This document shows positions 29,809 through 59,961 of a stretch of 64,000 nucleotides of DNA, piece by piece. The stretch spans positions 15,947 through 79,946 of the forward strand of contig JBDRCZ010000017.1 in assembly GCA_043821285.1 (NCBI GenBank), written 5' to 3'. The notes beneath the pieces were generated by a model. That model worked only from the letters and a program-made list of their open reading frames with translations, had not been told where the DNA came from and did no database searches. This stretch comes from Candidatus Omnitrophota bacterium. Its GTDB lineage: Bacteria > Omnitrophota > Gorgyraeia > B26-G9 > JBDRCZ01. Position 1 is the stretch's first letter. Every line of letters starts with the position of its first letter. The translations under genes were made by a program, and so were the position numbers.

Positions 29809-29834
29809 AATTTTTTGTCATAAGACAAAAAATT
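29809..29834 (-). terminator. Terminator of giant gene A
   Basis: TTTTTTGTC-ATAA-GACAAAAAA hairpin immediately after the stop (minus sense ...GCAATATAA TTTTTTGTCTTATGACAAAAAAT). Confidence 0.55.
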
Positions 29835-40419: not shown

Positions 40420-40447
40420 CTAAAAAATTGCCATAGGCAATTTTTTA
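40420..40447 (-). terminator. Terminator of giant gene C overlapping its stop codon
   Basis: Minus sense GCAATTTAA-AAAATTGCC-TAT-GGCAATTTTTT: 10-bp A/T-flanked stem. The stop-codon region GGCAATTT can alternatively pair with AAATTGCC. Confidence 0.6.
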
Positions 40448-43400: not shown

Positions 43401-46400
43401 ATTATGCTTTTAATCATACCTCTGGTAACTTCAGCTCCTTTAGTTTCTTGCTGATTCATCGCAGTATATAAATAAAATATTTCTGTAACAGACATTGAGT
43501 TAAGACAATTACCAAGTGCCGACATAGTTATTTCTATTGCTTCTTCATTAAGAAGATTCGTATCAATTTGCTCAGCAAATTGTTTAATAATTTCTAAAAA
43601 CTCATCTTTATCCTTTGTGTTATACATTTCTGTTATAATATTTTTAACTTCTTGAGGAGCGGATGCAATAAAGGCTTGTATTTCTTCGGGTGTCTGATAA
43701 TAATCAGCCAACTCTTTCTCCAGCTTTTCTATTTGTGACGCAATTGTCGTATCTAGTTCTGGTTTATTAATTCGCAGCCACTCTATTATTCTTTTTCTTA
43801 CTGTCCGATCTTGGATGCCAATCAATAATCCTAGTACATGCACTACCTCGTTTTCTAAACACATGTATTGTGACAAGATGTCGTTAAGTTCCGTATTCGC
43901 TGCATTGCTAAAGAATAGGTATATAGTACCAGCAATATGTTTTTGTATGCCCGTAAGTCTAAGGATTTTTTCACTCAAAATATTTCTTATGCTCGAACCC
44001 CAGCTTCTTTCTAAATATAATTCTACTGCTGTCTTTAAATTATCACATTCATTAACCAGTTCTCTTATTCTCATCCTTAGCAGTGCCCGGGTTCCTTCAT
44101 GGTACTCTCTATCATTGAGCAAATCTTGCAGTGGTTCGATACTAGCAATGCCTTGATATTCAGCAAGGCGCTGTTTGATCGCTTCTATTAATTGACTACT
44201 ATTGTCCCCATGATTTAACCTACGCAATAGTTCCTCTAAGGTGAGAGTTTTTATGGGGTCAAAATCTGCTAGTAGTTCTGCAAAAGTTACTTGATTATCA
44301 GAAGGCGCTGCAACTTCTCTTGTCGGGGGGGCATCCCTGTTGGTGTCGGCTCTTTGATTAGCGTTTCGCCATGCTGCTCTTAAGGCACGTGTATCTGACT
44401 GTGATGGTGGCTCTGGAAAATGTACCACCTGAGCTGCATTCGACGGAGCTGTTGTTCGTACAAACCTATCTGGAGGGGATAGTGATAGATCGAAAGCAGC
44501 TGCTAGTTTTTCTAATGAGTTTAGAGTCAAAGGGTTATTGTTTCCTGATGGAGGAACTGTATCTTTTGGTAAAGCAACTTCTGCTGTGTCAGTCCCTTCC
44601 TTTTCTGGTTGTCGCAAGTCACCTGATTGTAATGGTACGGTGTATGCTTGAGGGTTATTTTCTTTTTCCCTTTCCCTTTTCCTTTTCTTTCTTGCAATAG
44701 GAGGACTATCTGCTCTATATTGTTTACGTGCTTTCCTTTTCATTAATACAACTTTATCTTCTTCTTCATCATCATCATATTGGTCACTATCATCTATTGC
44801 ATTTATTAACTCCTCTATTATGAGCATTAAAGCAATCCGTATATTTTCTTCTGATAATTCACCCGAACCCTCTTGCATCAATTGCTCAATTTCTTCCTCT
44901 GACAAAGTTAAATCGTTTATAACACCAATGAGCTGTTCAATGATTTGACCATTCTCGTGTGCGCTTTCAATTATATTATCTATAGCATCTTTTAACGCTT
45001 CATGATATGTATCTTCATCAAGTAGTAAATAAGTTTTTACTAAAAAACTAAGATCTATTTCTAAAGCACTATTTCTCGTTGATCTTACGCCGGTACTACC
45101 AAGCAAGCATAGTAAACTAAATCCCCAAGCCAACCCCTTCCAAATAAAAAATGCCAGTGCATCTGGTCTTGCGGCAACAAAGTGTACTACTGGATATAAT
45201 AATCCTTCATGTCGTGCAAGAGAATTTATGATTGTAAATTCGATGTAGTCGATAATAATGAGCATAGCTGATTTAGCACCAGTAACCGCCTTTTTAACTA
45301 ATTCCCAAACATTTGGTATAAATTGTATCTGCGGTTGTATATATAAAGGAAAGGTCATTATTAAGGAAAGACCTAATATAGCGTGTATTGGTAAATGCCC
45401 TAAGTTTACACTAACCGGGATGCCCGTGATATTACTGATTACCTCTAATATAAAAGGTGCAATCAATAATAAAAAGAGGCCATTTATTAATGGATGGGAA
45501 TTCAGGGTAACACTCTTACCAGCATTACTTTCTTGATAAAATTCTCTTACCGCTCTATTTGTTTTTATTAAAGCACGTAAATCAATAATGATATTTCCAT
45601 TTCTATCTTTACGAAGGTCATGTTTATTTTCCTTGTCAGATAAAAATATCTTATCATCTTCTTTCACAATTTTATATTCCACGTTACCAATCCAAATAAT
45701 ATCATTTTCCCTGAAAGTTACTTCTTTCCTTAAAATATCAATGATTAATTCCTTGCTGTTTGCTTCGTTACGCAGAAGAATAGTATTACCAGCTATTGCA
45801 TATTTTGTATTATCTATCATTCTGTCTTGATGCCACCATGCTATTCTGAGTTTGTAACCATCACCCTTTCCCTCAGTTTTTATTTTTTTTAGACCATCTG
45901 TTGGGAAAAATTCTAACCGTTCTCGTAAACGCTGGATTTTAGTATTGTATTGTCTTATATCTAAAATTCGCTTGTTATGAATGTTCTGAATTACAGCTAA
46001 TAACTCGTTGTCCTTAATACTTGCTAATAATGCGCCATAAAAGGCCAGACCTAAGCTATCTACTCTTAAAACTATTCTTTCTATTTCTGTGTGTTTGTTT
46101 TTGTTAAATAGAGTTGTTAAATAATTAGCCAATATCAGTACAAATTCCCCGCCCCACCACTTTATAACCTCAACCAATTGACCAAGAGACTGCGGTGTAA
46201 TATTTTGATGTTCATTCAGGAGATTTTCAATAATTTGTAATACTGCAGAAACTGAATATACACCAAATTGTTCGGCCAAAGCTTTGATTATTGCCAATCT
46301 TTGCGTTTCATCAAAATTATTAAGATTAGCTTCTTTTTCTTTCATCATCTTAATATAATTTTCGGCTGAATCCCAATCTTGAGTAGACTTATTAGTATCC

Positions 46401-47536
46401 CAATACTGTACTGGTTTGCGATACACTGCTTTTGCTGCTACTAATATATTTTTTTCTTTCTCTGTAAGTGCGGTGTCATCATTTGTCCATATCCTAATCA
46501 TTCCGTGTCTTGGTGCTGTTATATAAAATGAAATTTTTGACGCAAGAAACTCTTCCCATTCTTCTGGAGAAGGCACAGTTGATAAATCAGCACGTAAACG
46601 TATAAAACGGTTATAGTTTTTATTTTCGTTATTAATTATGTCTGCCGGAAGCAGCCGCCGGCCAACATGAATTTCTATATTAGAGTTTTCTGGTATTGGT
46701 TGGGTATAACGGCTTCGATCAGGGGTTGAAACATTCCAGTAGTTTTGTGTTGATATACCAAATCTCAAAGATTCGTTATCTATTTTTATGCTCTCGGGAG
46801 CAAAAAACATCATCATAATTGCATGCGCAGGTAAACGTATTGCATCAATCCAGTAGTGAATTCCTTTACGATAACTATACTCAAGGATAATTTTAATACC
46901 ACGTTCAAACAGAACTTTTAATCCGGGTAAAAAGGCAATATTATTAAATACGCTGTTGGTATTTAATCTAAAGACTTCCATATCCCTGGGGACAGTAAGC
47001 ACTATTCGCGGAGACGCACCTTTAATATCTATTTTTCCATAAGTAGTAATTTCACTTTGCAAATCACGCGCCAACCCAAGCAAACTTAGAAAGTCAATTT
47101 CTTTTAGAACCGGGGGTATTCTTTCAACCGTCTCATCATCTGGACAAGGTATTTCTGGAATTTCCCTAATATTTAATTGATTGTTTTTTTTAGAAATTAC
47201 ATAAGAACGTTGTTTACCAGCTGCGCCTGTTGTTACAAACAATACTATCGAACCATCATTCGCAAATCTTTTCTCGCATGCATCAAACTCAAACTTATCT
47301 TTAATATAACTTACGCCAACATGTCCTTCTGCCCAAGTATATGCATCACTTATTTTTTTGTAAAGCATAATATTTTCTGCAAATAGAGGGTCATTTACTT
47401 CCAAAGGCGGGGCAAGATGGGTATGTAGACCTTTTAGATTGCCGCCGGCGGCCCATGAGATGTCTAAGCATAGAAAGGCATTGATTAATATTATGGAAAT
47501 TAGTCTAAAACAAATTGTACGTGTTAAATTATTCAT
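40445..47536 (-). CDS. Giant-family protein C (2363 aa): signal peptide, TM cluster, poly-acidic/poly-basic linker, helical-repeat C-terminal module paralogous to F, C-terminal FEIERAI
   Basis: N-terminus MNNLTRTICFRLISIILINAFLCLDISWAAGGNLKGLHTHLAPPL. DDSDQYDDDEEEDK ... RKKRKREREKE. C-terminal 700 aa align clearly with gene F, e.g. LIFAAVAYTVIAGYDVSKIIPIYIEKEQSYLIN versus LFAVIVYTFIAGGDVSKIILIYIEKEISYLIN. Confidence 0.7.
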   Translation of the reverse strand: MNNLTRTICFRLISIILINAFLCLDISWAAGGNLKGLHTHLAPPLEVNDPLFAENIMLYKKISDAYTWAEGHVGVSYIKDKFEFDACEKRFANDGSIVLFVTTGAAGKQRSYVISKKNNQLNIREIPEIPCPDDETVERIPPVLKEIDFLSLLGLARDLQSEITTYGKIDIKGASPRIVLTVPRDMEVFRLNTNSVFNNIAFLPGLKVLFERGIKIILEYSYRKGIHYWIDAIRLPAHAIMMMFFAPESIKIDNESLRFGISTQNYWNVSTPDRSRYTQPIPENSNIEIHVGRRLLPADIINNENKNYNRFIRLRADLSTVPSPEEWEEFLASKISFYITAPRHGMIRIWTNDDTALTEKEKNILVAAKAVYRKPVQYWDTNKSTQDWDSAENYIKMMKEKEANLNNFDETQRLAIIKALAEQFGVYSVSAVLQIIENLLNEHQNITPQSLGQLVEVIKWWGGEFVLILANYLTTLFNKNKHTEIERIVLRVDSLGLAFYGALLASIKDNELLAVIQNIHNKRILDIRQYNTKIQRLRERLEFFPTDGLKKIKTEGKGDGYKLRIAWWHQDRMIDNTKYAIAGNTILLRNEANSKELIIDILRKEVTFRENDIIWIGNVEYKIVKEDDKIFLSDKENKHDLRKDRNGNIIIDLRALIKTNRAVREFYQESNAGKSVTLNSHPLINGLFLLLIAPFILEVISNITGIPVSVNLGHLPIHAILGLSLIMTFPLYIQPQIQFIPNVWELVKKAVTGAKSAMLIIIDYIEFTIINSLARHEGLLYPVVHFVAARPDALAFFIWKGLAWGFSLLCLLGSTGVRSTRNSALEIDLSFLVKTYLLLDEDTYHEALKDAIDNIIESAHENGQIIEQLIGVINDLTLSEEEIEQLMQEGSGELSEENIRIALMLIIEELINAIDDSDQYDDDEEEDKVVLMKRKARKQYRADSPPIARKKRKREREKENNPQAYTVPLQSGDLRQPEKEGTDTAEVALPKDTVPPSGNNNPLTLNSLEKLAAAFDLSLSPPDRFVRTTAPSNAAQVVHFPEPPSQSDTRALRAAWRNANQRADTNRDAPPTREVAAPSDNQVTFAELLADFDPIKTLTLEELLRRLNHGDNSSQLIEAIKQRLAEYQGIASIEPLQDLLNDREYHEGTRALLRMRIRELVNECDNLKTAVELYLERSWGSSIRNILSEKILRLTGIQKHIAGTIYLFFSNAANTELNDILSQYMCLENEVVHVLGLLIGIQDRTVRKRIIEWLRINKPELDTTIASQIEKLEKELADYYQTPEEIQAFIASAPQEVKNIITEMYNTKDKDEFLEIIKQFAEQIDTNLLNEEAIEITMSALGNCLNSMSVTEIFYLYTAMNQQETKGAEVTRGMIKSIIIIKTVSIPRNVTSISALYYVINNETLCPNEDIKDLARRRMKHIIKNNQDIVALVDVYLSQEWDDEYWNNYLWYRIKALSTAKRLAEVNDRLLSEWSRNPRLPQKTKQAAAAQLSNSIASQGKISEIHLTVSSIEDGIERLTAISDRFKRQQAENNDKTQAQAIAQEMVSKWGGEALAALANLLSKKIHSEVEIYIIFGIIRQVFSLDIENLLRLLTDNSINKYTYGCKQIRGVIAEVLRKRLLGYNDLSNIPELYQMLNTYPNRNSRAPLVERITAIINESEDIEALVDLYKSQAEWAWGLGVVIQNRINALKPPQSCELMLVEDPMQKHSLYPQVLQGAAAMQVASEELPAWQAPVTTREPLLLDMPPAVKARREKLSEVTILLEGVITRTQALNRRQSNERTIQQTINKEQKQTRKNQKKISNLRNNLIVVQDKIQKLRNLLAADWETIEAYLKAEPDFVFEFFTNKIKAQIEGKEERTTEAGEVLGEILQRINIPKHDAETHNLIFAAVAYTVIAGYDVSKIIPIYIEKEQSYLINSGFNSHEILAAFIRLSFAIYRRDKKPLFNALCDVIKEYISRDFSNVNNVLELALKQDKETAMEIFYRMLTDIDDFLYQALTARTQDTNENIRFAIDGVFLADYLLRMEVYLRAVIQDENRLNEFHNLDSVGNLINEVMEKTVDGVSGEIIFSPEFTNAEKFLKHIFRQGTSFELMLLENITVRLNAFTSEDAFKKALELEFLGLFISQRNEDTDVFEKEREMIRSELTDLVTAVKGNNLMINANRRSLESMHRIIGRKYQELIQQQGLTPSNTTIDKLLSILVYFPRNVINEILNKTIMPQAAAGTFIFFDNIYTVRPDYRQTVLETVTKAVANAYTQEDNVQLMMLRPFFEQCLNAIHEKCRAEDRDIVKTIIQEIISDDESILEAKNIDPHISDSDMLLLHALYSLIVAPQERHTGYRVGINGSDTKLEKREIADLFEIERAI

Positions 47537-47853
47537 ATGTTAATACCCTGTTAGTTAATTCCAAATGTTCTAATTCAAGATTTAAAAATTCCAAGATTCC
47601 AGATTCTAAAATTATAAAATTCCCCGCTACAAGGTCGAAGATCCGCCATCGTATTAGTGAAGAACGCTGGCGAACAGGCAAATTCTCTAACCTTCGGCAA
47701 GTAAAACGTTTTGAATCGTTAAATCTTAAAATATTCAAATTTTGGAATTGTTTGTTTTATTCTTCTGTCTTCTATTCTCTACCTTCTGTTTTCTGCTTTC
47801 AATCAGCTGTATCAGTAAACGGTAAACTGCCTGCCTTCCATTAGGGAGGTAAA

Positions 47854-47881
47854 CTAAAAAATTGCCGCAGCAATTTTTTAG
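47854..47881 (-). terminator. Terminator of giant gene D overlapping its stop codon
   Basis: AAAAAATTGC-CGCA-GCAATTTTTT hairpin; minus sense ...GCAATCTAA AAAATTGCTGCGGCAATTTTTTAG. Confidence 0.6.
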
Positions 47882-50800
47882 ATTGCTTGTTCTACTGCCA
47901 ACATTTCATTCCACTCTAACTCTGTAAGTGCAGGGGGTTGTTTAGGCATTGTTGTCAATTGTCCTGGGTTATTATCATGAGGATCCAGTCTTTGCTGCTC
48001 TACAATCTTTATTGCTGCTTCAATAATCGCTGCAGTGTCCATCTTATGTGCACGGTATAATATCTCGTGACTTCTTGCGGATTGTCCCCAACCTTGGATT
48101 CCTAACGAAGTTACAGTTGAACCAGTTGTAAGCAGAGATGAAGTTACTACCTTACTTACTGCTCCGCTTAATATTTTTGGAGAAGCGTCTTGAACAGTAA
48201 TTATTGGCACTCCCCGTTCAAGAAGAGGTGGTAAAGCTTCATCGATTAAATCCAATCTGGTCAAATTTATTACTTTTGCGGTAATATCTTGACTTTCCAA
48301 TTGTTCGCTCGCGGCAATTGCAAATTCCACCATTGCTCCGGCAGCAATAATAATAATATCGCTATTTTGTCCGTTTTCTCTTGGATCTTTAATTACATAA
48401 GCACCTTGTTCTGGACTGGGATTTTCTCCTCTATTTAAAACTGGAACATTTTGACGGGTAAGCTGAAGATAAGAAGGTCCTTTACCATCTAATGCCCTGT
48501 GCATAGCAAAATCTACTGCTTCTTCAGCCTCACGGGCATCTGCAGGTATAAAACCAGTCATTTTTTGCAAAAAAGAAATATAGCGAATAACGCCAGCAAC
48601 GATTACTGACTGATGAGTAGAACCGTCTGGCCCAACGCCTAAGCCGGCATGACTTAACGCAACAATTACCGGTAGTTTTGCCCGGGCAATCACAATTATT
48701 TGACTAATCATTCGGTTAGCAAAACAATCAAAGGTTGCGATAACTGGTATCTTACCATATAATGCTAATCCAGCAGCAATTCCTGCCATTGCTTGTTCTC
48801 TTACTCCGGATGGAACGTATCTTCCATTGGTGTTATGACGAGAAAAAATGCCAAAGTCCCTAGCAAACCAATTCAGTCTTGTAGAACTGGCAATGTCCGC
48901 GCAGAAAGCAATAATCTTTTCGACGCGTTTTCCCCAGTCAAGCATCCTGTTACCAAAACCATCACGTGTAGCAAAATTCCTATTTGCTTGGTATCTAATT
49001 TCTGCCGGTGTTTGTAGCATTGTCATTTGAACCGGCTCTGGCTCTTGTGTTTGTTTAATGTTGCTATAAATAAGCAGATTGAATTCCCCAATCTTATAAG
49101 GAACCATTCCATTCAATGCTTCCATAATTGTTGTGGCCATGATGTGTTCATCAAAACCCCGGGTAATAATTAAAACAGGTTTTCCTGTATTATCCTTGTT
49201 TAGCTGTTCAAAGGTTTGACCTAAGATTTCAGCCTGTTCTTGATTATTATTAGCATTGAGCTCAATCACTCTCCAACCATAAGCTTGCCAAATATTAACT
49301 AATTCCGTGTTTGTCTCTGAAGCTTGAAGGACTAAGCAGAGATTATCTATGCCATTGTGTGCGGCGAATCTAGCTGTTTCTGCAAACTGACCTTCTCTTT
49401 CTTCTTTTTCCGTGGCTAAAGCAATAACTCTGCCAGATGCTGTATCCATTTTAGCTCCAAAAGCTATACCTGCGGCCAGAGAAAGACGCATACCCGCAGG
49501 GAATATTTCTTGAGGACTAAAATCTATTTTCATAAGCCCGTCCGTGGGTTTTTCTTTTCCATCAACTAATTCTTTTGCTACTTCTATTATATTTTCAATA
49601 TCCTTGTCACTCATGGACCAAACAACGGAACCTGCGGTTTTAGAAGATGAAGTTACAGTCCTGCTTACCGCATCACCTAAACATACTGGCAATCCATCAT
49701 AAATTGTAAGAATACGGCTTCCTGGCTCAATATACTCTAAGAGCTCACTTCCTGCACCTAATGAGTCTAATTGCGTAACATTTATGATCTTAGTCATCGT
49801 ACCTTGTGATTCTAACTCATTACTGACTTTTATGGTTTGATGAAGACTTTTACCTGAAGAAATAAGAATAACCCTCTTTTTTGCCGTGTCCCACCCTTCA
49901 GATTGACTTATAACATAGGCACCTTGCTCTGGCTGGGGATTTTCTCCTCTATCTATAACCGGAAGATCTGCAGAACTTAAACGAATATAAGAAGCAGTGT
50001 ACTCATCTGGGATATTAAGTGATGTAGGGGCTTTATTTGTTATTTTAGCCAATAATAATGCATTTTTTATTGCCATATCAGTCAACTCATTAGTTTCATT
50101 AGGATCCCCTGGTTCTAACGCAATTACATTATGCATCAGGTCCATAACTCCTGGGGTAAAACTTAACTCTTCAGATTCAGCCGCTAAAATAAACGGTACC
50201 CTTGCCTGAGCATTTATCCTTAATTGGTCTAACATTTTCATCGCATCATTTTCCGGCAGAAAGACAATCGGCAGCATACCCGAATAACCAAACCCAGCAG
50301 CAAAACTGGCTAAGTGCTGTTCTCTATCCTCAACTAAGAAACATCGCTCGATGAGTTTATTTCTTATATCTTCATCAGTAATCTGTGCAATAAATTCATC
50401 AATAAATCTTTGTTTAGAATCGGAATTATTAAAAATAAATACTATCCGTTCATCTTTTTCTGCCCACTGGAGTAGTCTATTTTTAAATGCAACAGATGGA
50501 GAGACTTCCTCATCCTGTGCATAGTTGGTTCTATCTGGTATTGTTGTCGTGTCTGTTTTTTGTAGAGTACTCTCTTTTGATAAATTGTTTTCTTCTTGTT
50601 CTGTCATTTGGTTATCTGAAATAAATCTATCTACATCTGTTGAAAATCCATAAAAATTCATTTGTTGACTAATATTTTCAATTGTGTTTTCTATTTGGGG
50701 GATAGCTTCAGATAGTTCTTTATCATTTAATGCTCTACCGTGAAACGCGGTTGGATCATCTTCCATAAAATCTACGCCTTTACCTTTTTTTGTCTTGGCA

Positions 50801-53553
50801 ATAATTGCTGTTGGCTTGTTTTTAATGTTTCTTGCTTCTTCACAAGCCGCGATAATTTCTAATGGTTCATGGCCATTAATTTCAATAACATGCCAGCCAC
50901 AACCTCTCCACGAACCTGCGACATCCGCACTATCTACTTCTTTAGTCAAGCTATCAATTTGTGCGCCATTAGCATTTACAAATAAGGTAAGATTATCTAA
51001 CCCTAATTCCGCAATATGCCTGGCAGCCTCTGCATATTGTCCTTCCTGTTCTTCCCCATCACCGGCAATAGCAAAGACGTTGGAGTCACGTCCATGCATT
51101 TTAGCTAGAAGCGCCATACCCGCGGCATTGGAGAGTCCCATACCTAAGGAACCGGTCAAGGCTTCTATACCACGAGTACAAATCCAGTCAGTATGTCCAG
51201 GAAGTCCACTGTTTAACTCTCTTAAATGGGATAATTGCTCTTTTGAAATATAGCCAAGTTTAGCTAAAATAGAATAAACTGCTGGCGCTATATGCCCTTC
51301 AGAAATAACTAACCGGTCACGGTCTGGCCAGCGCGGGTCATTTGGTGTATGATTCATAATCCGCGTTCCATCGGAATATCGTCCAAGATATAAAGTGACC
51401 AGTATCTCAGCCGCAGAGAGCGAACCTCCTGGATGTCCTGAACCAGCTATATTAATCATCTCCAGAATATCATTACGGCACATTTCTGCGATTTTCTTTA
51501 ACATCAAGCTTTGGCGCTGCTGTTCTATATAGTCTTTTCGCCAAAAAGCACCAATTATCAAAACACCAACAAGAAATATAGTATATGCGATCAATAAATG
51601 TATTGGAGATTGAAACAGTGTCATTATTGGTATTGAAATGGTTTCAAAACGATGGCTAAATGTTTTTAGTAGTTCGACAAAAGCTAATAAAATCGCACCA
51701 ATTGTGCCCAATAAGGCATAGGGGTTGAATTGTCGAAGGGTTAAATCTTGAGGAAATATATCTGAATTGTGGGGTGAAACATTAGAATCATCCCCTTTCC
51801 TTTTTAAATATTCTATTGCTCCATTAACCACCAAAAGAGCCCTAAAATATGCCTCTAAATAATCTTCTGCTGTTGTAAGAATAATTTTTTGATCATCTAA
51901 TCCAGAACGTGCTATCGGGTGACCTAAAATGTTTTCGTTTTCAGCCATTCTTTGTGAAGCAATCTTCCGCATATGTGTCCAGTTATGAAGTTGATTTACG
52001 CCTTTCAGCGGTAATAAGAGAGGGTTTCTTATACCCTGTGAGGTATAAAATTTTTCAACATCCTCGTCTTTGAGACCTGTCTGCTCTGGCACAAAATGAG
52101 GAGTATCACTAGGATATGCAGCCTCTGCCAAAAAAACATTTGCTGTTATTCTCCCCGAAGAATAATGTTCTGTTACACATTTTAGGTAAAAAACCAATGT
52201 TCCATTTAAAGCAGAGTCAATAAAGCATACTTGCGATGTATTATTATCAATAATTCCTTCATCAATTAACTGCTCATAAGTTTGTTTTGCTTGTTCAGCA
52301 AAAACCGTGTTTGTTTTTAATGTTTCTTCAAAGGATTGTCTTAATTGTGGATAGAAATTTTCCGGATCTCCTTGTTCTGTAGTATTGCGGCGAACTTTTC
52401 GCAATGTGTCTTCAATAATCTTAAAATTGTCGCGTTTTCTTTTTTCCGGAGTAGGATGATCATCTCCTATATAACCTAACATTTTTCGATCAAGATAAAA
52501 TACAAAAGAATTATCAGGGGGAGCCCCTTTTGTCAAAAGACTCAAATAATACTCGGACTCATAGTAAATTGCTCCATCACGTGCTAAATAAACTCTTCGT
52601 CCTTCAGCAGGTAATTGTTCTAATAAATAAGGGATGATTTTAGCTGTGCCTATTAACCACATAAAAGAATCTTTTTTTTGTCTTGAAGTCAAAAAATGGC
52701 AAAGGCTTCTTAGCTTTATATTCAAACTTCCAGTAAATAAGCCTTGATTTCTTACACCTTGTTCTGTCATTACCAATAACTCTTGCTCTCTTCTTCGTAA
52801 TTCTTCTGCTATTTCTACGTTACTTCTCCATCTCAATTGGTCTGGTTTAAGAACTTGATAATGCGTGCGTACCTCATGCCCTTCGATCGGGCTTAAAAAA
52901 TGTATCGGAAATGTTGGACTTATTTCTGGTACATTAATAGAGGTTAACATCATTTCTAAATCCATGGCTATACCTTCTTCGCCGAGTGGATGTCTTAATA
53001 CTGATAATGCGCGCTCTTTAACTTTATCATTGGGGTCTTCCAATATTATTTTTTTCAAAAATTCAACAACCTTTGTTTTAGCTGTCTCACTTTTGTTCCC
53101 AACAATTCCCAAGAGCCGTATTAAATTACTGCGTGGATTGTCTAACACAACACCACCACGATAAAGAAGATCATCAGGGTCAATAATGGTTGGATCATCC
53201 CAAGCAGCGATTAAGGCATTTATCAGTATAATAGCATCGAGACTTAATAATTTTGGAGCTTCATTTCGTCTCCAAATATTAAACTGCGAAAAAGTTAATC
53301 TTAAAACTTGCGTTAGTTCTTCCCTTTTTATCTCTATAGGGTACTTATTTACTGATTGTGTAGATATACCAAGTGTATTTTGTTCAAAAGGCTCTGTAAG
53401 TGAAGACTTACTTATCTCTAAAGGAGGCGAGAGGTGGGTGGACAAATTTTTCAAATTACTATTTGCCGCCCATGAAATGTCAAGACATAAAAAAGAGTTG
53501 ATTAATATAAAGGCTGTTAGTTTGAATAAAATGTCCCGTTTTATTTTTTTCAT
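47878..53553 (-). CDS. Giant-family protein D (1891 aa): signal peptide, HEAT-like N-region, TM cluster, two tandem transketolase-like modules, C-terminal AVEQAI
   Basis: Module 1: SGHPGGSLSAAEILVTLYLGRY ... IAGDGEEQEGQYAEAARHIAELGLDNLTLFVNANGAQIDS (TPP/PP domain) plus a Tkt-C-like segment RGENPQPEQGAYVISQSEG. Module 2: degenerate PP domain (ATEKEEREGQFAE...), then a Transket_pyr-like FATRDGFGNRML...GVREQAMAGIAAGLALYGKIPVIATFDCFANRMISQIIV...GPDGSTHQSV and a Tkt-C-like RGENPSPEQGAYVIKD. Confidence 0.75.
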   Translation of the reverse strand: MKKIKRDILFKLTAFILINSFLCLDISWAANSNLKNLSTHLSPPLEISKSSLTEPFEQNTLGISTQSVNKYPIEIKREELTQVLRLTFSQFNIWRRNEAPKLLSLDAIILINALIAAWDDPTIIDPDDLLYRGGVVLDNPRSNLIRLLGIVGNKSETAKTKVVEFLKKIILEDPNDKVKERALSVLRHPLGEEGIAMDLEMMLTSINVPEISPTFPIHFLSPIEGHEVRTHYQVLKPDQLRWRSNVEIAEELRRREQELLVMTEQGVRNQGLFTGSLNIKLRSLCHFLTSRQKKDSFMWLIGTAKIIPYLLEQLPAEGRRVYLARDGAIYYESEYYLSLLTKGAPPDNSFVFYLDRKMLGYIGDDHPTPEKRKRDNFKIIEDTLRKVRRNTTEQGDPENFYPQLRQSFEETLKTNTVFAEQAKQTYEQLIDEGIIDNNTSQVCFIDSALNGTLVFYLKCVTEHYSSGRITANVFLAEAAYPSDTPHFVPEQTGLKDEDVEKFYTSQGIRNPLLLPLKGVNQLHNWTHMRKIASQRMAENENILGHPIARSGLDDQKIILTTAEDYLEAYFRALLVVNGAIEYLKRKGDDSNVSPHNSDIFPQDLTLRQFNPYALLGTIGAILLAFVELLKTFSHRFETISIPIMTLFQSPIHLLIAYTIFLVGVLIIGAFWRKDYIEQQRQSLMLKKIAEMCRNDILEMINIAGSGHPGGSLSAAEILVTLYLGRYSDGTRIMNHTPNDPRWPDRDRLVISEGHIAPAVYSILAKLGYISKEQLSHLRELNSGLPGHTDWICTRGIEALTGSLGMGLSNAAGMALLAKMHGRDSNVFAIAGDGEEQEGQYAEAARHIAELGLDNLTLFVNANGAQIDSLTKEVDSADVAGSWRGCGWHVIEINGHEPLEIIAACEEARNIKNKPTAIIAKTKKGKGVDFMEDDPTAFHGRALNDKELSEAIPQIENTIENISQQMNFYGFSTDVDRFISDNQMTEQEENNLSKESTLQKTDTTTIPDRTNYAQDEEVSPSVAFKNRLLQWAEKDERIVFIFNNSDSKQRFIDEFIAQITDEDIRNKLIERCFLVEDREQHLASFAAGFGYSGMLPIVFLPENDAMKMLDQLRINAQARVPFILAAESEELSFTPGVMDLMHNVIALEPGDPNETNELTDMAIKNALLLAKITNKAPTSLNIPDEYTASYIRLSSADLPVIDRGENPQPEQGAYVISQSEGWDTAKKRVILISSGKSLHQTIKVSNELESQGTMTKIINVTQLDSLGAGSELLEYIEPGSRILTIYDGLPVCLGDAVSRTVTSSSKTAGSVVWSMSDKDIENIIEVAKELVDGKEKPTDGLMKIDFSPQEIFPAGMRLSLAAGIAFGAKMDTASGRVIALATEKEEREGQFAETARFAAHNGIDNLCLVLQASETNTELVNIWQAYGWRVIELNANNNQEQAEILGQTFEQLNKDNTGKPVLIITRGFDEHIMATTIMEALNGMVPYKIGEFNLLIYSNIKQTQEPEPVQMTMLQTPAEIRYQANRNFATRDGFGNRMLDWGKRVEKIIAFCADIASSTRLNWFARDFGIFSRHNTNGRYVPSGVREQAMAGIAAGLALYGKIPVIATFDCFANRMISQIIVIARAKLPVIVALSHAGLGVGPDGSTHQSVIVAGVIRYISFLQKMTGFIPADAREAEEAVDFAMHRALDGKGPSYLQLTRQNVPVLNRGENPSPEQGAYVIKDPRENGQNSDIIIIAAGAMVEFAIAASEQLESQDITAKVINLTRLDLIDEALPPLLERGVPIITVQDASPKILSGAVSKVVTSSLLTTGSTVTSLGIQGWGQSARSHEILYRAHKMDTAAIIEAAIKIVEQQRLDPHDNNPGQLTTMPKQPPALTELEWNEMLAVEQAI

Positions 53554-53756: not shown

Positions 53757-55227
53757 ACTTTGTTAAAAATCAGGTCTTTTCAAAAAAATCATTTACGTAA
53801 GTCGTGAAAACTCATAACTTATGTAATTTCAATACTTTACGTTAATTTTTTCCTTGACAATATCCACAACTCCTGCTATGGTATATAGTTGTAATCAAAC
53901 CACCGTAACACACAACAGGAGGTGGATATGGGTATTTTTAATCTCACTATTTCGGTAATCAATAATTTCTTATTTCGTTTTAAACCTGCCTTCTCAAAAA
54001 AACAATTTATCGTTTTCTCCTTCCTGATCTATGCTTTGTTTAAAGACTACAAGAGAAATTCCCTTTATGCCCTCGCCTCTAAAACTCCAATCAACTATCA
54101 GGCTTGTCAGTACTTCTTATCTGAAGGAAAATGGAGTATCGATGATCTTAATAATATAAGGTTAAAAATTATTGAACATCAAAGAACTACTTCTGCTACT
54201 TCCTCCGGCGTCTTAGTTATTGATGATACTTCTCCTAAGCCTTTTGCTAAAGCTACCGCCGGTGCTAAACGTCAACACTGTGGTGTCTTAAATCGTGAAG
54301 AAATCTGTAATGTTGCTGTATTCTCTGCCTTCGCCTCCAAAACTAAACGCTTCCCGATAAACCTTAAATCTTATCTCCCCGCTGAAAAATTCTTATTTGG
54401 CAAAGAGGATGTAGATTTTAAAAGTAAGCTCGATCTTGCCCAAATATTAGTCGATGATGCCTTAGAAAGAAAAATTAAATTCTCTTCCCTCGTCATAGAT
54501 GCATGGTATGCTCAGTCTTCACAATTCCTTGAGTTTGTTCACTGCCAGAGAAAACTGCCCTTCATTGGTGAATTAAAGTCCAATCGTAACATCTTCTTTT
54601 ACCATCCGCTAAAGCGGAAACACTGCTGGATCCAGCAGGATGAGCTGGTGAAACTCATCAAAAAACATTATCCGCATAAGTGTAGGTTTTTTACCTCCAC
54701 GAGCAAAGATGGTAAGAAGAAGTCTTGGGTCTTCTACACCTTCAAGGGACTGCTGAAAGATTGTTCTGTTCCCTTAAGCATAGTGGTGATCTTTGGTAAG
54801 TGGGATAATCAGGATGATAAGAATGTTCATATCCTTATCTCCAATCAGACCCGCCTGGCTACTAAGACCATCATTTCCACCTACCTGCTTCGTTGGGGAA
54901 TAGAGCTTATCTTCAGGGAGCTCAAGGATGTCTTCTCCTTTGACCAATACCAGGTTAGACATACCAAACAGATCGAACGTTACTAGACACTATGCCTTAT
55001 TGCATGGAGCCTGTTATATTGGGTCAAACAAAATGCCTATCTTACCAAAATCCTTGAGCATAAACCTGCTACCTTCTATGACTACAAACAGGCCATTGAC
55101 TCCTTACTCCTTTATGATGCTCATCAGTCTCTTTCAAAGAACAGTCATCTTGCTCAGAAATATTTTAAAATTAAATCGGATAATTTTAAACAGCAAATCG
55201 CTCGCGTTGCCTGATTTTTAACAAAGT
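53757..55227 (+). mobile_element. IS element (IS4/IS701-like DDE family), 1471 bp, perfect 18-bp terminal inverted repeats ACTTTGTTAAAAATCAGG
   Basis: Left repeat at 53757-53774 and its exact reverse complement at 55210-55227 (extendable to about 24-29 bp with 2 mismatches). Single transposase ORF inside. Inserted within the leader of giant gene D, between D and the terminator of E. Target-site duplication not clearly resolvable (CTAT/TAT). Confidence 0.7.
53922..55212 (+). pseudogene. DDE transposase of the IS, interrupted by an in-frame TAG at 54984-54986
   Basis: Track ORF 53922..54986 ends ...YQVRHTKQIERY*. The same frame continues TLCLIAWSLLYWVKQN...QQIARVA to a TGA inside the right terminal repeat (about 55212). 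The Y-x2-R-x3-E ... K tail typical of IS4-type transposases straddles the TAG. TAG is a genuine stop elsewhere in this window. Confidence 0.5.
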
Positions 55228-55285: not shown

Positions 55286-55313
55286 CTAAAAATTGCCGAT
55301 GGCAATTTTTTTA
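55286..55313 (-). terminator. Terminator of giant gene E overlapping its stop codon
   Basis: AAAAATTGCC-GAT-GGCAATTTTTTT; minus sense ...GCAATCTAA AAAAATTGCCATCGGCAATTTTTAG. Confidence 0.6.
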
Positions 55314-58300
55314 GATTGCCTGTTCCACGGCCAAAACCGTATTCAATCCTACTCCTTCAAGTAGCGGAAGTAAAGACATCAATTTCTGCATAGGCTTTTC
55401 ACCCTGCTGTCTGCAACCATCTGGAGTGTCTTTTCTTTCTCCATCTTCCATGAAACTCTGAGAAGCTAAATATCTCATTAGTTCTCCTGTTTGATTAGGA
55501 TTGGTTACTCTTACTATCGTAATATTTTCAACTTTAAGAACTAATCGATCATTACCTCCACTCCAAAATTCATCACCAATATATATGTCAGCTGCTGCAT
55601 CTATTACAGCCGCGGCTTTATCTTCTAAGTTTTCAGTATGTTCTTCTACAAAATCTCCCATTTTTTCATCATAGATGAATTTATGATACCCCGGTTCAGA
55701 GGATATGGTATAAAGAACAAGATTTTTTAATAAACCCTGCTTATCTTTCGGGATAGCAAATAATACCTGGCCTTTTACATTAAATATGTTTCCGCCAGTA
55801 ATTATTCTTAGCTTATATCCAACCTCAAGTAAGTTAAGGAATGCATCCAGATTATCTTCTCCGATTATTCCCCAGTAAGGAACAAGTGTGCCATCCATAT
55901 CTATTCCTATAACCTGAATTTCTTCTAACGGTACATGGCCATTTATAATATCATGGACATTTAATGGAGTATTTTGGGTTGTATCTACTGGGGATAGCGT
56001 GCCAAGTGTTTGTTTTGGGACAAAACTGTTTTCTTGCTCACGCTTTGCTATAAATTTACGGTGTGCAAGGACAATAAAGGTAGAAAGTGCAAGACCTTTA
56101 CCCTGCAATTCTTCTACTGTTTCACGGTTATCTTTAAGCTGCGGATCTAAATATGCCGCCAATAATTGCATAAGCAAAGGTTCATTAAGTAATAAATCTA
56201 CTCCCACGTTAACTTCTTGATAAAGTTTTTTTGCCTTTACATAGTCTGAAAAAAGTTCTCCTAATAACGAGGATTCATTGGTTAATTCCGCATACAAATT
56301 ATCGAATATTTCTTCTACAGATATTAATATATCATTGTACATTTCATCAGAAAGATGGCTTCTTAAAAATTCTTCTTGTTCTTGTACTTTCCACGGAGGT
56401 AGATATTTACTTCTCAAACCGTATTGATTTAAACATTGCTCTAACTTATAAAAGATTATTTGTTCAAGAACACTCTCATTATCAACTTTACTGATCAAAT
56501 TTTCTGGCAAGCGGTTTTTAATAAGATTTTTAAGCAGTGTACCAGTCGCCGATGTACTCAATCCGGTTCCATCAGCAAGTGAGTTTGGTGTCCATTCAAA
56601 AGGCAGCCATTCTGACACAACTATTCCGTGAAGATACTCTCTTCCAAAAGATATTCTTCCTCTTGTTCCTAAACCAAAAGTGTGAAGTTGAATGCCAAAT
56701 TGTTCGTTAAGCTTAGCATTTGTAACAGTGGAAGAGTCAGAATTTTTAAGAAGAGCAGCGAAATGTGCTTCAACCTCTGCTAATGAATCAAGCAAACACC
56801 TTGCTTTATGAAGAGTTACACCAGTTTCAACAATATCATCAATTATAAGAACGTTGCGGTGTTCTCTGAGATACTCGACGACCTTTGTATCATTTAGAAA
56901 TAACCGCAGGTCTTCAGGAGAATCTAAAGAGTATACATCTCTTTCAAAACCCAAACGCACCCTTTCAGCTTCTGTCAATAATGACCAAATTATTGTTGTT
57001 AAATTTAACTTTTGAGTAATAATCCAACTTTGGAATTCAGGTATTTCCTTATTAAATAAGTTATTCGCTTTTAACTGAGTAAGCAAAATTTCCAATGCTT
57101 TGGCAATTGGATCAGCTCCTTTTGAGGGAAAGATAACTAAATTTATATCGTGTTGGATTAAATATTTAACAATAGGAAGAAGTATAGGAGCAAATTGCAA
57201 AACTTGTATGTCTGTTCCTAAAGAATCTATGTCTCCAATTTCTTCACCTAATGCAGCTTCGACCGCCTGCCGAAGCTTTCCAGTATATCTGGAGCGATAA
57301 GGACTACGCAGATATCCTTCAATCGTTGGCAAGTTTTTTGCGATCTCCTTTTCAAGCTCTTCTTCAGCCCTCAAAAACATCTGATGCCCTGTTTCTGTCC
57401 TGAATAAAGTTTCACCCAGAAAATTGCCGTCATCTTTGCCTGATTTTTCATAAAGTCTATACTCTTCTTCAAGGCGCTCTTTATTAGTTTTAAATCTGGC
57501 TCGGATCTGTTCAGGTGTTATTTCTATTCCCGCAGCTTCTAAATCAGCAATAATCCCTTGATAAGTACACATAAATAATCTGTCTGCCTCACGCCATACT
57601 GTTATTAATCTATAAAAAGAAGAAGCATTAGCAAAAGGCCCTTCAAAATTAAACAAAAACTGTCCTTTTTCATATAAAGAAGTATCAACACCCATATTTC
57701 TAAGCTCTACTAAGGCCTGTTCAATAGAAGGATTATCATGAGCTTTTACCACACCACAGATTAAATTTACATTTACATCAGTTGCACTTAAAATACCGGT
57801 TGAAATTAATTGTTGGATTAATTCCCTAATCATTTCGGGGGCTTTTTTCATATGCGCAAGCCTAAACGCGATTGTGTTCTGCGCTAATTCTTTTGCCTTT
57901 AACGAATTTCTCTGTTCAATTTTCTTGCGTATTTGAATAATTCTTGCCCGTGAGCCTTCTAACTTGGCGTACCCAATATCATGTAATAAGGCTAATATTG
58001 CTGCGTTTTTAAATTCTTCATAGGTAAAATCTTCTCCTAATCCAATCTGCACCGCGTTCTCTAAGACTTGAGTATGATGATTTACAGGGTTGCCATTTGC
58101 TCCAGCTTTAAAATGAGGTAAGGCGCTCCAAAAAAGTGTGAAGAGAATATTTTGAATTTCTTGTTTTTGCTGGTCTGTAAATGTGCGGTCTTTTTCAATG
58201 CGGCTTAGTGCATTTTCCAAATTCTGAACTGCTAAACTTTTCTTACACTGAACAAGATAGTAGCCATTCTTTTCTTCAATTACTGCTTCTAATCCATTGT

Positions 58301-59036
58301 CTGTAAGAAATTGTTCAAATTCTGCTTTATTAGAAAAACTAAATCGACCACGTCCAGCGTTTATTGGTTCGGCAATCAATATTTCACCTTCTGAACTAAC
58401 TGCCCGAATATACTCCTTTAATAACTGATCACGTTCTTCACGATTACTAAACATGGTAAAGAACCGAATGCTGACCACTTTAGAAAAACTTCCGTCTTTA
58501 AACCGCATGTCCAAGGCACTGGCTTTTACCAAATCAACATTTTTGCTATCTTGCTTTCTATTTTGAGCAATGTTAAGTAAAATTTCATTGGTATCTAACC
58601 CTGTTATATGTTTGCAAAATTGAGAAATATAAAAAGTGAAATGTCCGGAACCACAACCTATTTCTAAAACTTCATCATCATTATCAATATTAGCTTCAAG
58701 CCAGTCTTTAGGGAAGTCTACAAGATAAGATGCAAGCGTACGATCATAAAAATAGGAAAAATATATCTTTTTGAGCCAATCAACGAGTCTTTCAGTCCAA
58801 GACCTGTGAGGAGAAATATCTCGTGTATCGTTAGGCAGCTTTAGCTGAGTTATATTTATTGTTTCTGCAACGTGTTCTTTAAGAATAGAATTATTTATTT
58901 GCAAAGGCGGAGCAAGGTGGGTGGACAAATTTTTTAAATTACCATTAGCAGCCCAGGAAATATCTAAGCATAAAAAGGCGTTAATTAATATAATCGCTGT
59001 TAGTTTGAATAATATATTTTTTTTAATGTTCAACAT
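55311..59036 (-). CDS. Giant-family protein E (1241 aa): signal peptide, class I SAM methyltransferase, HD domain, type I phosphoribosyltransferase-like and HAD-like phosphatase domains, C-terminal AVEQAI
   Basis: MTase motif I VLEIGCGSGHFT; HD: H..H ... LLHDIGYAK; PRTase: VLIIDDIVETGVTLHKA; HAD motif I VIGIDMDGTLVPYWG. N-terminus MLNIKKNILFKLTAIILINAFLCLDISWAANGNLKNLSTHLAPPL. SD GGAGA 8 nt upstream. Confidence 0.75.
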   Translation of the reverse strand: MLNIKKNILFKLTAIILINAFLCLDISWAANGNLKNLSTHLAPPLQINNSILKEHVAETINITQLKLPNDTRDISPHRSWTERLVDWLKKIYFSYFYDRTLASYLVDFPKDWLEANIDNDDEVLEIGCGSGHFTFYISQFCKHITGLDTNEILLNIAQNRKQDSKNVDLVKASALDMRFKDGSFSKVVSIRFFTMFSNREERDQLLKEYIRAVSSEGEILIAEPINAGRGRFSFSNKAEFEQFLTDNGLEAVIEEKNGYYLVQCKKSLAVQNLENALSRIEKDRTFTDQQKQEIQNILFTLFWSALPHFKAGANGNPVNHHTQVLENAVQIGLGEDFTYEEFKNAAILALLHDIGYAKLEGSRARIIQIRKKIEQRNSLKAKELAQNTIAFRLAHMKKAPEMIRELIQQLISTGILSATDVNVNLICGVVKAHDNPSIEQALVELRNMGVDTSLYEKGQFLFNFEGPFANASSFYRLITVWREADRLFMCTYQGIIADLEAAGIEITPEQIRARFKTNKERLEEEYRLYEKSGKDDGNFLGETLFRTETGHQMFLRAEEELEKEIAKNLPTIEGYLRSPYRSRYTGKLRQAVEAALGEEIGDIDSLGTDIQVLQFAPILLPIVKYLIQHDINLVIFPSKGADPIAKALEILLTQLKANNLFNKEIPEFQSWIITQKLNLTTIIWSLLTEAERVRLGFERDVYSLDSPEDLRLFLNDTKVVEYLREHRNVLIIDDIVETGVTLHKARCLLDSLAEVEAHFAALLKNSDSSTVTNAKLNEQFGIQLHTFGLGTRGRISFGREYLHGIVVSEWLPFEWTPNSLADGTGLSTSATGTLLKNLIKNRLPENLISKVDNESVLEQIIFYKLEQCLNQYGLRSKYLPPWKVQEQEEFLRSHLSDEMYNDILISVEEIFDNLYAELTNESSLLGELFSDYVKAKKLYQEVNVGVDLLLNEPLLMQLLAAYLDPQLKDNRETVEELQGKGLALSTFIVLAHRKFIAKREQENSFVPKQTLGTLSPVDTTQNTPLNVHDIINGHVPLEEIQVIGIDMDGTLVPYWGIIGEDNLDAFLNLLEVGYKLRIITGGNIFNVKGQVLFAIPKDKQGLLKNLVLYTISSEPGYHKFIYDEKMGDFVEEHTENLEDKAAAVIDAAADIYIGDEFWSGGNDRLVLKVENITIVRVTNPNQTGELMRYLASQSFMEDGERKDTPDGCRQQGEKPMQKLMSLLPLLEGVGLNTVLAVEQAI

Positions 59037-59553
59037 AATAAATATCTCCAGTTATTTAATTTTAAATGTCCCGCCTATCAAACCGGCGACAGGCAAATGA
59101 ATCATTAAATAATTCAATCTTTAAAATTTATTTATGTAATTTGTGTGATTTGTTGTTAATAAAATAAGTACTTGAAATCTTTCTTTGTGTGCTCCGTGTC
59201 TCTGTGTGACAAATCTAATATTTTTGTTTCGCTTGTCCGCCGTGCTCTGTTTGGCGGGTCATTCTGGTTTCGTTATTCGTTATTAAATTATCCTGTCTAT
59301 CATCCACAATGATTGGCGGATCTTCAATTTTTTATATTTTCTCTGTGAACTTTGCGAGCTCTGTGGTGATAAATTTTTTATTTTTTTTTACCGCGATACT
59401 CAATACTCATTGCTTTTTATAGTGTGCGCTCTGTGATGATAATTTTTGTTTTGTTTTTTTAGCCACAATGCTCAATACACAATACCCGATACTTAATCAT
59501 ATTACTTTTCATAATGCCTTGTTATAAATAAATTTATAACATCTTTTAAATAG
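59037..59553 (-). promoter_or_regulatory. Long conserved 5' leader of giant gene E (about 515 nt)
   Basis: RNA sense contains at least 6 CACAGAG motifs, TATTGAG/TATTGTG heptamers, an AATCCTGTCTAT box, and the stem-loop GTCGCC-GGTTTGATA-GGCGGGAC 50 nt before the ATG. Collinear blocks shared with the gene B leader. Confidence 0.5.
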
Positions 59554-59933: not shown

Positions 59934-59961
59934 ACAAAAAGTTGCCATAGGCAACTTTTTA
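59934..59961 (-). terminator. Terminator of giant gene F overlapping its stop codon (covarying stem)
   Basis: AAAAAGTTGCC-ATAG-GCAACTTTTT. Relative to the C, D and E terminators, the A:T pair is replaced by G:C on both arms, a compensatory change. Confidence 0.6.

Follow-up and report, generated by a model that had tools for sequence, protein, structure and literature searches.

In a 64,000 nt stretch of DNA from a Candidatus Omnitrophota bacterium (GenBank assembly GCA_043821285.1, contig JBDRCZ010000017.1, positions 15,947 to 79,946 of the forward strand; here termed the window), we identified gene E as a candidate member of a family of exported multi-enzyme proteins. Gene E (55311..59036, minus strand) is a complete open reading frame (ORF) that starts with ATG and continues in a single open frame for 1241 codons and a stop. 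Its sequence suggests, with a probability that we put at roughly 45 %, that E is an envelope-type multi-enzyme of the Omnitrophota, which would be exported by the Sec pathway and act on phosphorylated ribose or nucleotide compounds, and in which the C-terminal tail would serve as a second signal. The protein is best described as a small variant, free of transmembrane (TM) helices, of the known multi-enzyme envelope proteins of this phylum, and the domain fusion itself will not surprise specialists of the Omnitrophota. The new elements appear to be a leader–tail signature, apparently undescribed, and a phosphoribosyltransferase (PRTase)-like module that is linked to transketolase and RpiA.

The Omnitrophota are widespread, uncultured and probably predatory or parasitic nanobacteria, and the giant proteins for which they are known place 'cytoplasmic' enzymes in segments with a predicted extracellular location. 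This puzzle of location is untestable on polypeptides of 40,000–150,000 aa. E and its relatives contain the same kinds of domain in TM-free proteins of about 1000 aa with one leader and one tail, and could be expressed, fractionated, assayed and mutated.

The leader and tail of the E family

Alignments and residue geometry defined the family leader as residues 1–29 of E (MLNIKKNILFK-LTAIILINAFLCL-DISWA; 58950..59036, minus strand), comprising an n-region, an h-region of 13 aa and a c-region, with F21, D25, W28 and A29 invariant in the alignments. The first ~48 residues of E and of the proteins encoded by its tandem neighbours A to D are 60–78 % identical. The geometry [KR]-x13-D-x-[SA]-W-A was present in 29 of 29 leaders, the distance from the last Lys or Arg to the Asp being exactly 13 residues. 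The net charge of the n-region was +2 to +5 in 29 of 30 leaders and +1 in the remaining one, position –3 was Ser or Ala in 29 of 30, and position –1 was always Ala. By its sequence, the leader has the form of a substrate for Sec and signal peptidase I, with a predicted cut after W28-A29, and the 13 aa h-region is too short for a stable membrane anchor.

A sequence-only reading of the window had proposed that the array genes share a family signal peptide, and had kept in reserve the idea that the signal is not a Sec signal at all. The first proposal was borne out, as the shared leader is real, has a fixed geometry and precedes enzymes of cytoplasmic type (for example the transketolase of D, named by that reading and here seen to be double, and the cargo of protein P0005). 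The fallback is argued against by the charge, the 13-residue h-region and the residues at –3 and –1. Conservation of the leader across paralogues and genomes is far above that of ordinary signal peptides, and the many synonymous differences in the 5′ DNA indicate that this conservation operates at the protein level. An ordinary signal peptide from the same genome, that of an SH3 protein (20042–20992), is unrelated to the family leader. Two other types of signal were considered and rejected. A lipoprotein signal was dismissed because Cys23 varies among the members and a lipobox is missing; a double-glycine/C39 leader was discarded because the GG that follows WA in many members is missing from D and E, and the h-region is Sec-like.

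A second conserved motif lies at the predicted mature N-terminus, at residues 34–48 of E (LKNLSTHLAPPLQIN; 58893..58937, minus strand), where the alignments gave the family consensus L-[AS]-P-x-h-x-[IV]-[ND]. The pattern L-A-P-x-x-x-V/I-N/D was also seen after the ordinary, non-family signal peptides of P0007, P0010 and P0015, which are proteins with the PRTase-like module, and judging from these sequences the motif of the mature N-terminus may extend to more proteins than the leader does. P0015 ends in -QAA, and P0009 ends in -HAA.

At the other end of the protein, comparison of family members revealed a C-terminal tail, LAVEQAI-COOH in E (residues 1235–1241; 55314..55334, minus strand). D ends in the same -LAVEQAI, and the corresponding ends of A, B, C and F are -FIEQAI, -IAEQAI, -EIERAI and -AIEQAI. 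Protein P0005, from another Omnitrophota metagenome-assembled genome (MAG), has the same leader and the tail -LIEASI. Among complete ORFs of at least 150 aa from the same loci, the tail ([QRA][AS]I or x[AS]A) was present in 18 of 19 ORFs with a strict leader match and in 7 of 123 others (Fisher p=3e-16), a contrast to be read with the knowledge that the pattern was set after the data had been viewed and that the ORFs include paralogues. Five of the seven tail-bearing ORFs in the second group carry a variant leader, and their reclassification gave a Fisher p of 4e-23. The tail was seen in the window (29833–63891+, minus strand) and in loci L002, L003, L006, L011, L013 and L023.

Leader and tail co-vary. 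Subfamily 1 combines the leader form '...LDI[AS]WA[AG]G...L[AS]PxhQI' with the tail '-ΦΦ[ED]QAI' (-EQAI, -DQAI or -ERAI), and subfamily 2 combines '...LDISWAYPP...NxTLA' with '-AL[RQ]AA' (-LRAA or -LQAA). The terminal codons (GCA/GCG/GCC and ATA/ATT/ATC) vary between genomes, as do the stop codons and 3′ flanks; the constraint on the tail therefore acts on the protein. The idea that the conserved ends are DNA or RNA elements, such as an integron-like cassette or a terminator extending over the last codons, was rejected on the same cross-genome differences and on the synonymous divergence at the 5′ end.

A signal peptide paired with a short conserved C-terminal motif, in proteins that are otherwise unrelated, recalls LPXTG/sortase, PEP-CTERM/exosortase and GlyGly-CTERM/rhombosortase, but the motif of the E family is the extreme C-terminus itself, with neither a TM helix nor a basic tail after it, and no partner enzyme came to light. 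NCBIfam models of sorting domains gave no match in A, B, D or E at E<=0.1. There is presumably also a likeness to the C-terminal signals KDEL and PTS1. The C-terminal degrons recognized by ClpX resemble ssrA (..LAA) or MuA (RRKKAI) (PMC8138137), and the family tails, ending in -AI or -AA, resemble the same two classes at the level of sequence.

Pattern scans for the leader identified two further Omnitrophota MAGs and 24 metagenome contigs; as these were scans of DNA patterns only, the resulting family size is a lower bound. The combination of leader and tail has so far been found in contigs of Omnitrophota type only, often in tandem arrays (L003 has at least five genes, L013 three and L002 two). 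Compared with Pfam, 36 proteins with the leader gave HEAT_2 (in six of them), PPDK_N, methyltransferases, SLOG/LDcluster4, transketolase, guanylate kinase, NAD epimerase, HD and peptidase M28 domains, and the cargo of P0005 consists of UDPGP and guanylate kinase. The GGDEF-like assignment that the sequence-only reading had made for B is weak, scoring 21.4 bits against a cut-off of 37.4.

Domain composition of E

The four domains expected in E, with their quoted motifs, were all recovered in essentially the predicted order: methyltransferase, HD, PRTase-like and haloacid dehalogenase (HAD)-like. On E itself, the S-adenosylmethionine (SAM)-dependent methyltransferase was the only one to pass its Pfam threshold, and the HD, PRTase and HAD domains failed theirs, an outcome that the sequence-only reading had named as a refutation. 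We nevertheless accepted these three because each is supported by homologous modules, complete motifs, and AlphaFold models or profile matches. The catalytic motifs were intact in all domains checked, with no sign of the systematic loss expected of a pure scaffold.

The class I SAM-dependent methyltransferase occupies residues 108–262 (58251..58715, minus strand). It matched Methyltransf_11 over residues 124–221 (E=2.6e-16, 60.5 bits, cut-off 21.2) and Methyltransf_25 (E=1.1e-15, 58.5 bits, cut-off 27). Motif I is VLEIGCGSG (residues 123–131, with E125, G127, G129 and G131), and the post-I acid is D148, at the end of β2. The closest solved relative is the phosphoethanolamine N-methyltransferase 5wp4 (E=2.1e-10).

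Residues 266–566 (57339..58241, minus strand) form an HD-superfamily phosphohydrolase or diesterase module, delimited by homology and by an AlphaFold2 model. The Pfam HD score on E was 15.2 bits, below the cut-off of 22. This ~300 aa unit is mobile: it shares 44 % identity with the C-terminal half of the ROK kinase fusion P0003, and 40 and 28 % with the two copies in P0002. Over 300 aa, the supporting matches to modules in these two proteins lie at 40–47 % identity. As the 40 %-identical module of P0002 passes both HD (42.8 bits) and HD-CE (32.3 bits), HD membership extends to E by transitive homology. An alignment of four sequences showed the seven candidate metal ligands, the His and Asp residues H320, H352-D353, H395, H433-D434 and D485, to be invariant, along with E483; the motif LLHDIG lies at H352-D353. 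The predicted structure is all-helical (pLDDT 89.6, pTM 0.88), and its top Foldseek matches were class I cyclic nucleotide phosphodiesterases (PDE10, PDE5 and PDE4), with probabilities of up to 1.0, E-values of 0.03–0.2 and TM-scores of ~0.4. On its sequence, we assign the module to the phosphohydrolases or diesterases of the HD superfamily, its ligand set being complete. It shares with the superfamily, including HD-CE (PF24391), the H...HD...H...HD...D pattern and an all-α domain of ~300 residues, but falls below the HD cut-off, and the likeness to the phosphodiesterases is weak. HD sites with seven ligands typically characterize binuclear phosphodiesterases, for example PgpH and HD-GYP proteins; E lacks the GYP motif.

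The third module begins with a core resembling type I PRTases at residues 594–830 (56547..57257, minus strand), which was recognized from a family alignment, a profile comparison with the Protein Data Bank (PDB), and AlphaFold2 with Foldseek. Pfam Pribosyltran (PF00156) scored 20.7 against a cut-off of 26.3 and covered only residues 725–767. Exhaustive HMMER searches with residues 566–1241 of E matched just 11 proteins, six of which share a two-block module corresponding to E 594–693 and 705–995. Its invariant features are LLP..K (619–624), S638-x3-D642-P643 after β1, T688/E691, D733, G739 and W882. A motif resembling the phosphoribosyl pyrophosphate (PRPP) loop, VLIIDDIVETGVT, lies at residues 729–741; the family form is h4-D-[DE]-x3-[TS]-G-x-[TSA], and D733 and G739 are invariant in seven members.

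When the profile of this module was compared with the PDB, all 27 matches were type I PRTases, PRPP synthetase or PyrR, the best with E=7.8e-4 over the ~35 residues of the PRPP loop. The hhalign comparison with a bona fide PRTase of L006 aligned only 23 columns. The AlphaFold2 model (pLDDT 73, pTM 0.77) contains a β-α-β core with the PRPP loop after β3, followed by a helical domain. Foldseek related it to HGPRT, OPRT, XPRT, PyrR and PurF with probabilities of 0.9–0.99, target TM-scores of 0.35–0.5 and E-values of 0.05–0.2, and gave no match at E<=0.001. Taken together, sequence and model define the module as a PRTase-like fold with a putative phosphoribosyl-binding loop, not to be filed as a member of PF00156. 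An identity with the Pfam PRTase-CE domain was considered and rejected, since hhalign against the PRTase-CE region of P0008 gave nothing; a search of the literature on PRTase-CE and HD-CE likewise yielded nothing of use.

The helical domain covers residues ~831–1000 (56037..56546, minus strand), as seen in the alignment and in the model, whose helices 251–420 correspond to E 830–999. It always accompanies the PRTase-like core and holds the invariant W882 ('PWK'). The sequence-only reading had placed a helical region before the PRTase, but the helical domain follows it. With type I PRTases and PRPP synthetase the module has in common the PRPP-loop motif h-h-h-h-D-[DE]-x-x-x-[TS]-G-x-[TS], a putative β1-loop-helix with a [KR]-G-like loop and, in the medium-confidence model, what appears to be a parallel β-α-β core. 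It differs from them in its own motifs (LLP..K, S-x3-DP and PWK), a variable insert and the obligatory helical domain of ~170 aa, and the base-binding hood of the type I enzymes is not recognizable in E.

The partners of this module point to its chemistry. P0007, from an NCBI MAG, consists of a signal peptide, a transketolase and a region 32–40 % identical to E 555–995, and P0012 joins a signal peptide, RpiA (ribose-5-phosphate isomerase A) and the PRTase-like module. These fusions tie the module to pentose-phosphate enzymes, including the enzyme encoded by the neighbouring gene D. By sequence comparison, this recurrent ~400 aa module appears to define an uncharacterized family linked to pentose-phosphate chemistry, and constitutes a new element. 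By analogy, the most economical guess for its ligand would be a 5-phosphoribosyl compound, namely ribose 5-phosphate, PRPP or a nucleotide. The phosphomutase lineage of the HAD domain, described below, and the ROK sugar kinase partner of the HD module in P0003 point in this direction as well.

The last domain, at residues 1040–1190 (55467..55919, minus strand), is a HAD-superfamily phosphatase core identified by profile and motifs. Pfam Hydrolase_3 scored 16.3 on E (cut-off 20.9), and residues 1038–1107 matched the PfHAD1-like structure 4qjb (E=3.3e-5). The family profile matched the α-phosphoglucomutase 4bnd over its full length (E=1.9e-11), as well as phosphomannomutases. All four motifs are invariant in the alignment: D1046-x-D1048-x-T1050 (DMDGT, 1046–1050) as motif I, T1080 as II, K1140 as III and D1155/D1163 as IV. 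Relatives were found in P0008, which passes Hydrolase_3, and in the 4.4 kaa proteins P0011 and P0014, with three copies in each. E shares the four motifs and the full-length profile match with HAD subfamily IIB (the α-phosphoglucomutase 4bnd, phosphomannomutases and PfHAD1). The enzymes of this subfamily enclose the sugar phosphate with a C2 cap between motifs II and III, but in E the cap is reduced to a stub: ~60 residues separate T1080 from K1140, against ~150–165 in the relatives, so that ~100 aa are missing. On this sequence evidence, the HAD domain of E is a cap-less member of the phosphomannomutase/α-phosphoglucomutase lineage. Without the C2 cap, its specificity, and even its substrate class, may differ.

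Proposed cellular location and function of E

The closest known counterparts of E are the Archaeovorins, Omnitrophota giants with several enzyme domains and a signal peptide or TM helices, which are described in a preprint by West-Roberts et al. (2023; bioRxiv 10.1101/2023.11.21.568195). The domains listed there are HEAT_2, PPDK_N, Lysine_decarbox, HAD_2, GGDEF, methyltransferases and PGM/PMM. A second preprint (bioRxiv 10.64898/2026.06.07.730766) reports signal peptides or TM helices in 94 % of the long proteins of Omnitrophota; 46 % have TM helices only and are predicted to lie mostly in the cytoplasm, and the paradox of location is discussed there too. Omnitrophota have been proposed to be predators or parasites (PMC10066038). 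E and the Archaeovorins come from the same phylum, both have a signal peptide followed by a string of divergent enzymes of cytoplasmic type, and both pose the same paradox. The repertoire of the 36 leader proteins also matches, with HEAT_2, PPDK_N, methyltransferases, HAD, SLOG/lysine-decarboxylase-like, GGDEF-like and phosphomannomutase-like domains. In contrast to the Archaeovorins, which have at least 30,000 aa and many TM helices, E has 1241 aa, is TM-free apart from its leader, and stands in a tandem array of separately terminated genes with a sequence-conserved leader and tail. Word searches of the two preprints did not bring up a leader or C-terminal motif conserved in sequence, and a further search of the literature yielded no publication on a sorting signal of this kind in the phylum.

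We hypothesize that the leader carries E across the cytoplasmic membrane by Sec and would be cleaved after W28-A29, and that mature E would work in the periplasm, at the surface of the cell or where the cell touches its prey. Its substrates would be phosphorylated ribose or nucleotide compounds. In this scheme, the PRTase-like module would bind the 5-phosphoribosyl group, the HD and HAD domains would remove phosphates, the methyltransferase would modify the product, and E would act in the same pathway as D. For the tail we would prefer a degron of ClpXP/Tsp type that removes copies left in the cytoplasm, because -AI and -AA match the two degron classes that ClpX recognizes at C-termini. Our second choice would be a peptide that docks on the HEAT-repeat paralogues, and our third a secretion or retention signal.

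A broader version of this proposal, which we advance tentatively and hold to be on the doubtful side, is that leader and tail form an undescribed, two-ended address system of the Omnitrophota. The system would export sugar-phosphate and nucleotide enzymes, and the tail would dock on HEAT paralogues (a 'split Archaeovorin') or destroy retained copies; E would then be a working phosphoribosyl or nucleotide enzyme, extracytoplasmic or directed at prey. If the leader–tail pair is indeed a sorting, docking or degradation code, it would represent a new system of protein addresses in bacteria, and would also be a simple sequence handle for cataloguing all the exported enzymes of the phylum.

The surroundings of the arrays offer some support for export. 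In L003, the block downstream of the array encodes an MFS_2 sugar transporter, a GH2/GH72-like TIM-barrel glycosidase and two small ORFs without a Pfam match, and a transporter and a glycosidase following the arrays would fit extracytoplasmic processing followed by uptake. Blocks with similar gene sizes and order lie downstream of several arrays of subfamily 1 (L003 14385–19121, L013 4621–9599 and L023 10931–15786), consisting of an ORF of ~480–494 aa, one of ~630–650 aa and one or two of ~215 aa that end in KYE/YEK. Separate from its block, L023 has a GH2-like ORF at 15956–17227.

Several observations weigh against an exported, working E. SAM, PRPP, nucleotides and sugar phosphates are normally cytoplasmic, as are the thiamine pyrophosphate and ATP of the paralogues, which makes activity outside the cell hard to picture. 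No dedicated peptidase or transporter gene was found adjoining the arrays. For want of an orthologue, purifying selection cannot be measured on E itself. The loss of the C2 cap is unique to E among the aligned HAD relatives, and the PRTase assignment draws on one loop and a medium-confidence model with weak Foldseek E-values. The tail statistics carry the qualification given above. Finally, West-Roberts et al. caution that the predicted extracellular location of metabolic domains is perhaps wrong (bioRxiv 10.1101/2023.11.21.568195).

As all expected substrates of E are cytoplasmic, the main competing explanation is that E stays on the cytoplasmic side, the leader being a membrane tether or a non-Sec tag and E forming part of a metabolon at the cytoplasmic face together with D and the paralogues (pentose-phosphate, nucleotide-sugar and nucleotide enzymes). 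We regard this as unlikely, although the need of every domain for cytoplasmic metabolites would be met, and the extreme conservation of the leader is atypical of Sec signals. Paralogues B, C and D carry further TM segments that could place their enzyme domains inside the cell, and both preprints (bioRxiv 10.64898/2026.06.07.730766, with the 46 % of TM-only long proteins, and 10.1101/2023.11.21.568195) voice distrust of topology calls. The positive n-region, the 13-residue h-region and the D-x-[SA]-W-A motif, on the other hand, fit a cleavable signal with N-in/C-out topology. In a hydrophobicity analysis, the sole strongly hydrophobic segment of E was residues 8–26, within the leader; A likewise lacks a second TM segment, and neither protein has the means to return its bulk to the inside. 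Leaderless cytoplasmic copies of such enzymes also exist, for example the canonical PRTase and PPDK of L006.

Improbable, to our minds, is the idea that E is a conflict effector or toxin, delivered to a target in which it would deplete PRPP or nucleotides (PRTase-like, HD and HAD domains) and methylate its target, with tail and leader serving self-protection or delivery. A degron-like tail would suit a dangerous protein, and the lifestyle proposed for Omnitrophota is predatory or parasitic (PMC10066038). The PADLOC model of the PRTase-like toxin ShosT matched E (E=2e-4), but in the PRPP loop only, and PADLOC found nothing on E beyond this and generic methyltransferase matches. Relatives of the HD module match HD-CE, and the HAD relative P0008 also carries PRTase-CE, to which the module of E is unrelated by hhalign. 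No immunity gene or injection apparatus adjoins the arrays, and the partner enzymes (transketolase, RpiA, PPDK, UDPGP and guanylate kinase) seem suited to synthesis or interconversion, not to destruction.

E might instead be a scaffold or a decaying paralogue, in which the domains are drifting or serve as binding modules, and neither the HAD without its cap nor the divergent PRTase-like module is an enzyme any longer. This would be consistent with the three of four domains below Pfam thresholds, the deleted cap, the singleton architecture and a candidate insertion sequence (IS)-like element between D and E. We consider it very unlikely given that all checked catalytic motifs are intact, the 3.7 kb ORF is uninterrupted, and the same modules recur in other genomes at 25–47 % identity with the same invariant residues. 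That the fusion is an artefact of MAG assembly or gene calling is scarcely credible: repeated leader and 3′-flank sequences of the neighbours could mislead an assembler, but they lie at the gene ends and not at domain junctions, the frame is continuous with family-typical ends, and independent contigs hold partial junctions, such as the linker E 555–594 with the PRTase-like module in P0007.

The gene array and its surroundings

The NCBI protein that is 100 % identical to E is named 'MAG: methyltransferase domain-containing protein [Candidatus Omnitrophota bacterium]' and is encoded on a contig of 85,997 bp. Omnitrophota is likewise the source of D, P0005, P0006 and P0015 by NCBI name, and of loci L001 and L002. 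The G+C content of the window is ~36 %. Its first 25 kb hold plus-strand housekeeping genes including thiC, guaA, dnaE, hisS and aroB, and from 29.8 kb onward giant ORFs follow on the minus strand: A (29833–32820), B (33141–39581), C (40445–47536), D (47878–53553), E, and F, which extends from 59959 past the window end (64000). No in-frame stop interrupts F up to that end, so that it exceeds 1310 aa and has its N-terminus beyond the window; the middle of F is a paralogue of the C-terminal part of C.

D matched the NCBIfam transketolase model with E=2e-143, and a second pyrimidine-binding and C-terminal unit at residues 1532–1850 gives it two transketolase-like units. These are preceded by a 600 aa region of unknown nature and two or three hydrophobic segments (residues 611–671). 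Between D and E, two overlapping plus-strand ORFs of 354 and 97 aa (53922–55221) are transposase or IS-like candidates by sequence, as is a 268 aa minus-strand ORF downstream of the array (27148–27954). If they are such elements, these ORFs may be a sign that the array was recently rearranged.

Directly after the stop codon of E lies a terminator-like hairpin, AAAAATTGCC-ATC-GGCAATTTTT (55288..55310, minus strand), which is common to C, D, E and F. The equivalent hairpins are at ~40420–40444 (C), ~47853–47877 (D) and ~59934–59958 (F), and are followed by GTTTAC-rich repeats. A and B do not have the AAAAATTGCC/GGCAATTTTT hairpin, nor do the other genomes. The sequence 'GGCAAT' also comprises the last codons (Ala-Ile), which makes alternative hairpin pairings possible. 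A scan for consensus promoters and terminators around E returned nothing over shuffled expectation and did not call the 3′ hairpin.

A conserved element, TTTGCCTGTC(C)GCCGGTTTGATAGGCGG(A/G)ACATTT..AATTAA, was observed upstream of E (~59080–59140) and B (~39625–39690), and in part upstream of D. It includes a CCGCC/GGCGG hairpin 40–70 nt ahead of the start codons. A scan with Rfam gathering thresholds found tRNA only, with no riboswitch or known RNA upstream and no family for this element.

Directly downstream of A and B, an H-NOX gene (Pfam HNOB, E=2.5e-14) occupies 28969–29508 on the minus strand. Together with the weak GGDEF-like stretch of B, it may represent a link between nitric oxide or oxygen sensing and cyclic di-GMP. 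On the plus strand, 11321–12718 encodes an ATPase of the type II secretion system/type IV pilus kind (T2SSE) with an N-terminal PilZ domain. Type II secretion and pilZ genes near giant Omnitrophota genes are reported by West-Roberts et al. (bioRxiv 10.1101/2023.11.21.568195). The cumulative GC skew of the window reaches its maximum at ~24 kb (24000–25500), where gene orientation flips from plus to minus, and this peak may reflect a replication-related switch point or a strand-bias effect of the divergent gene blocks.

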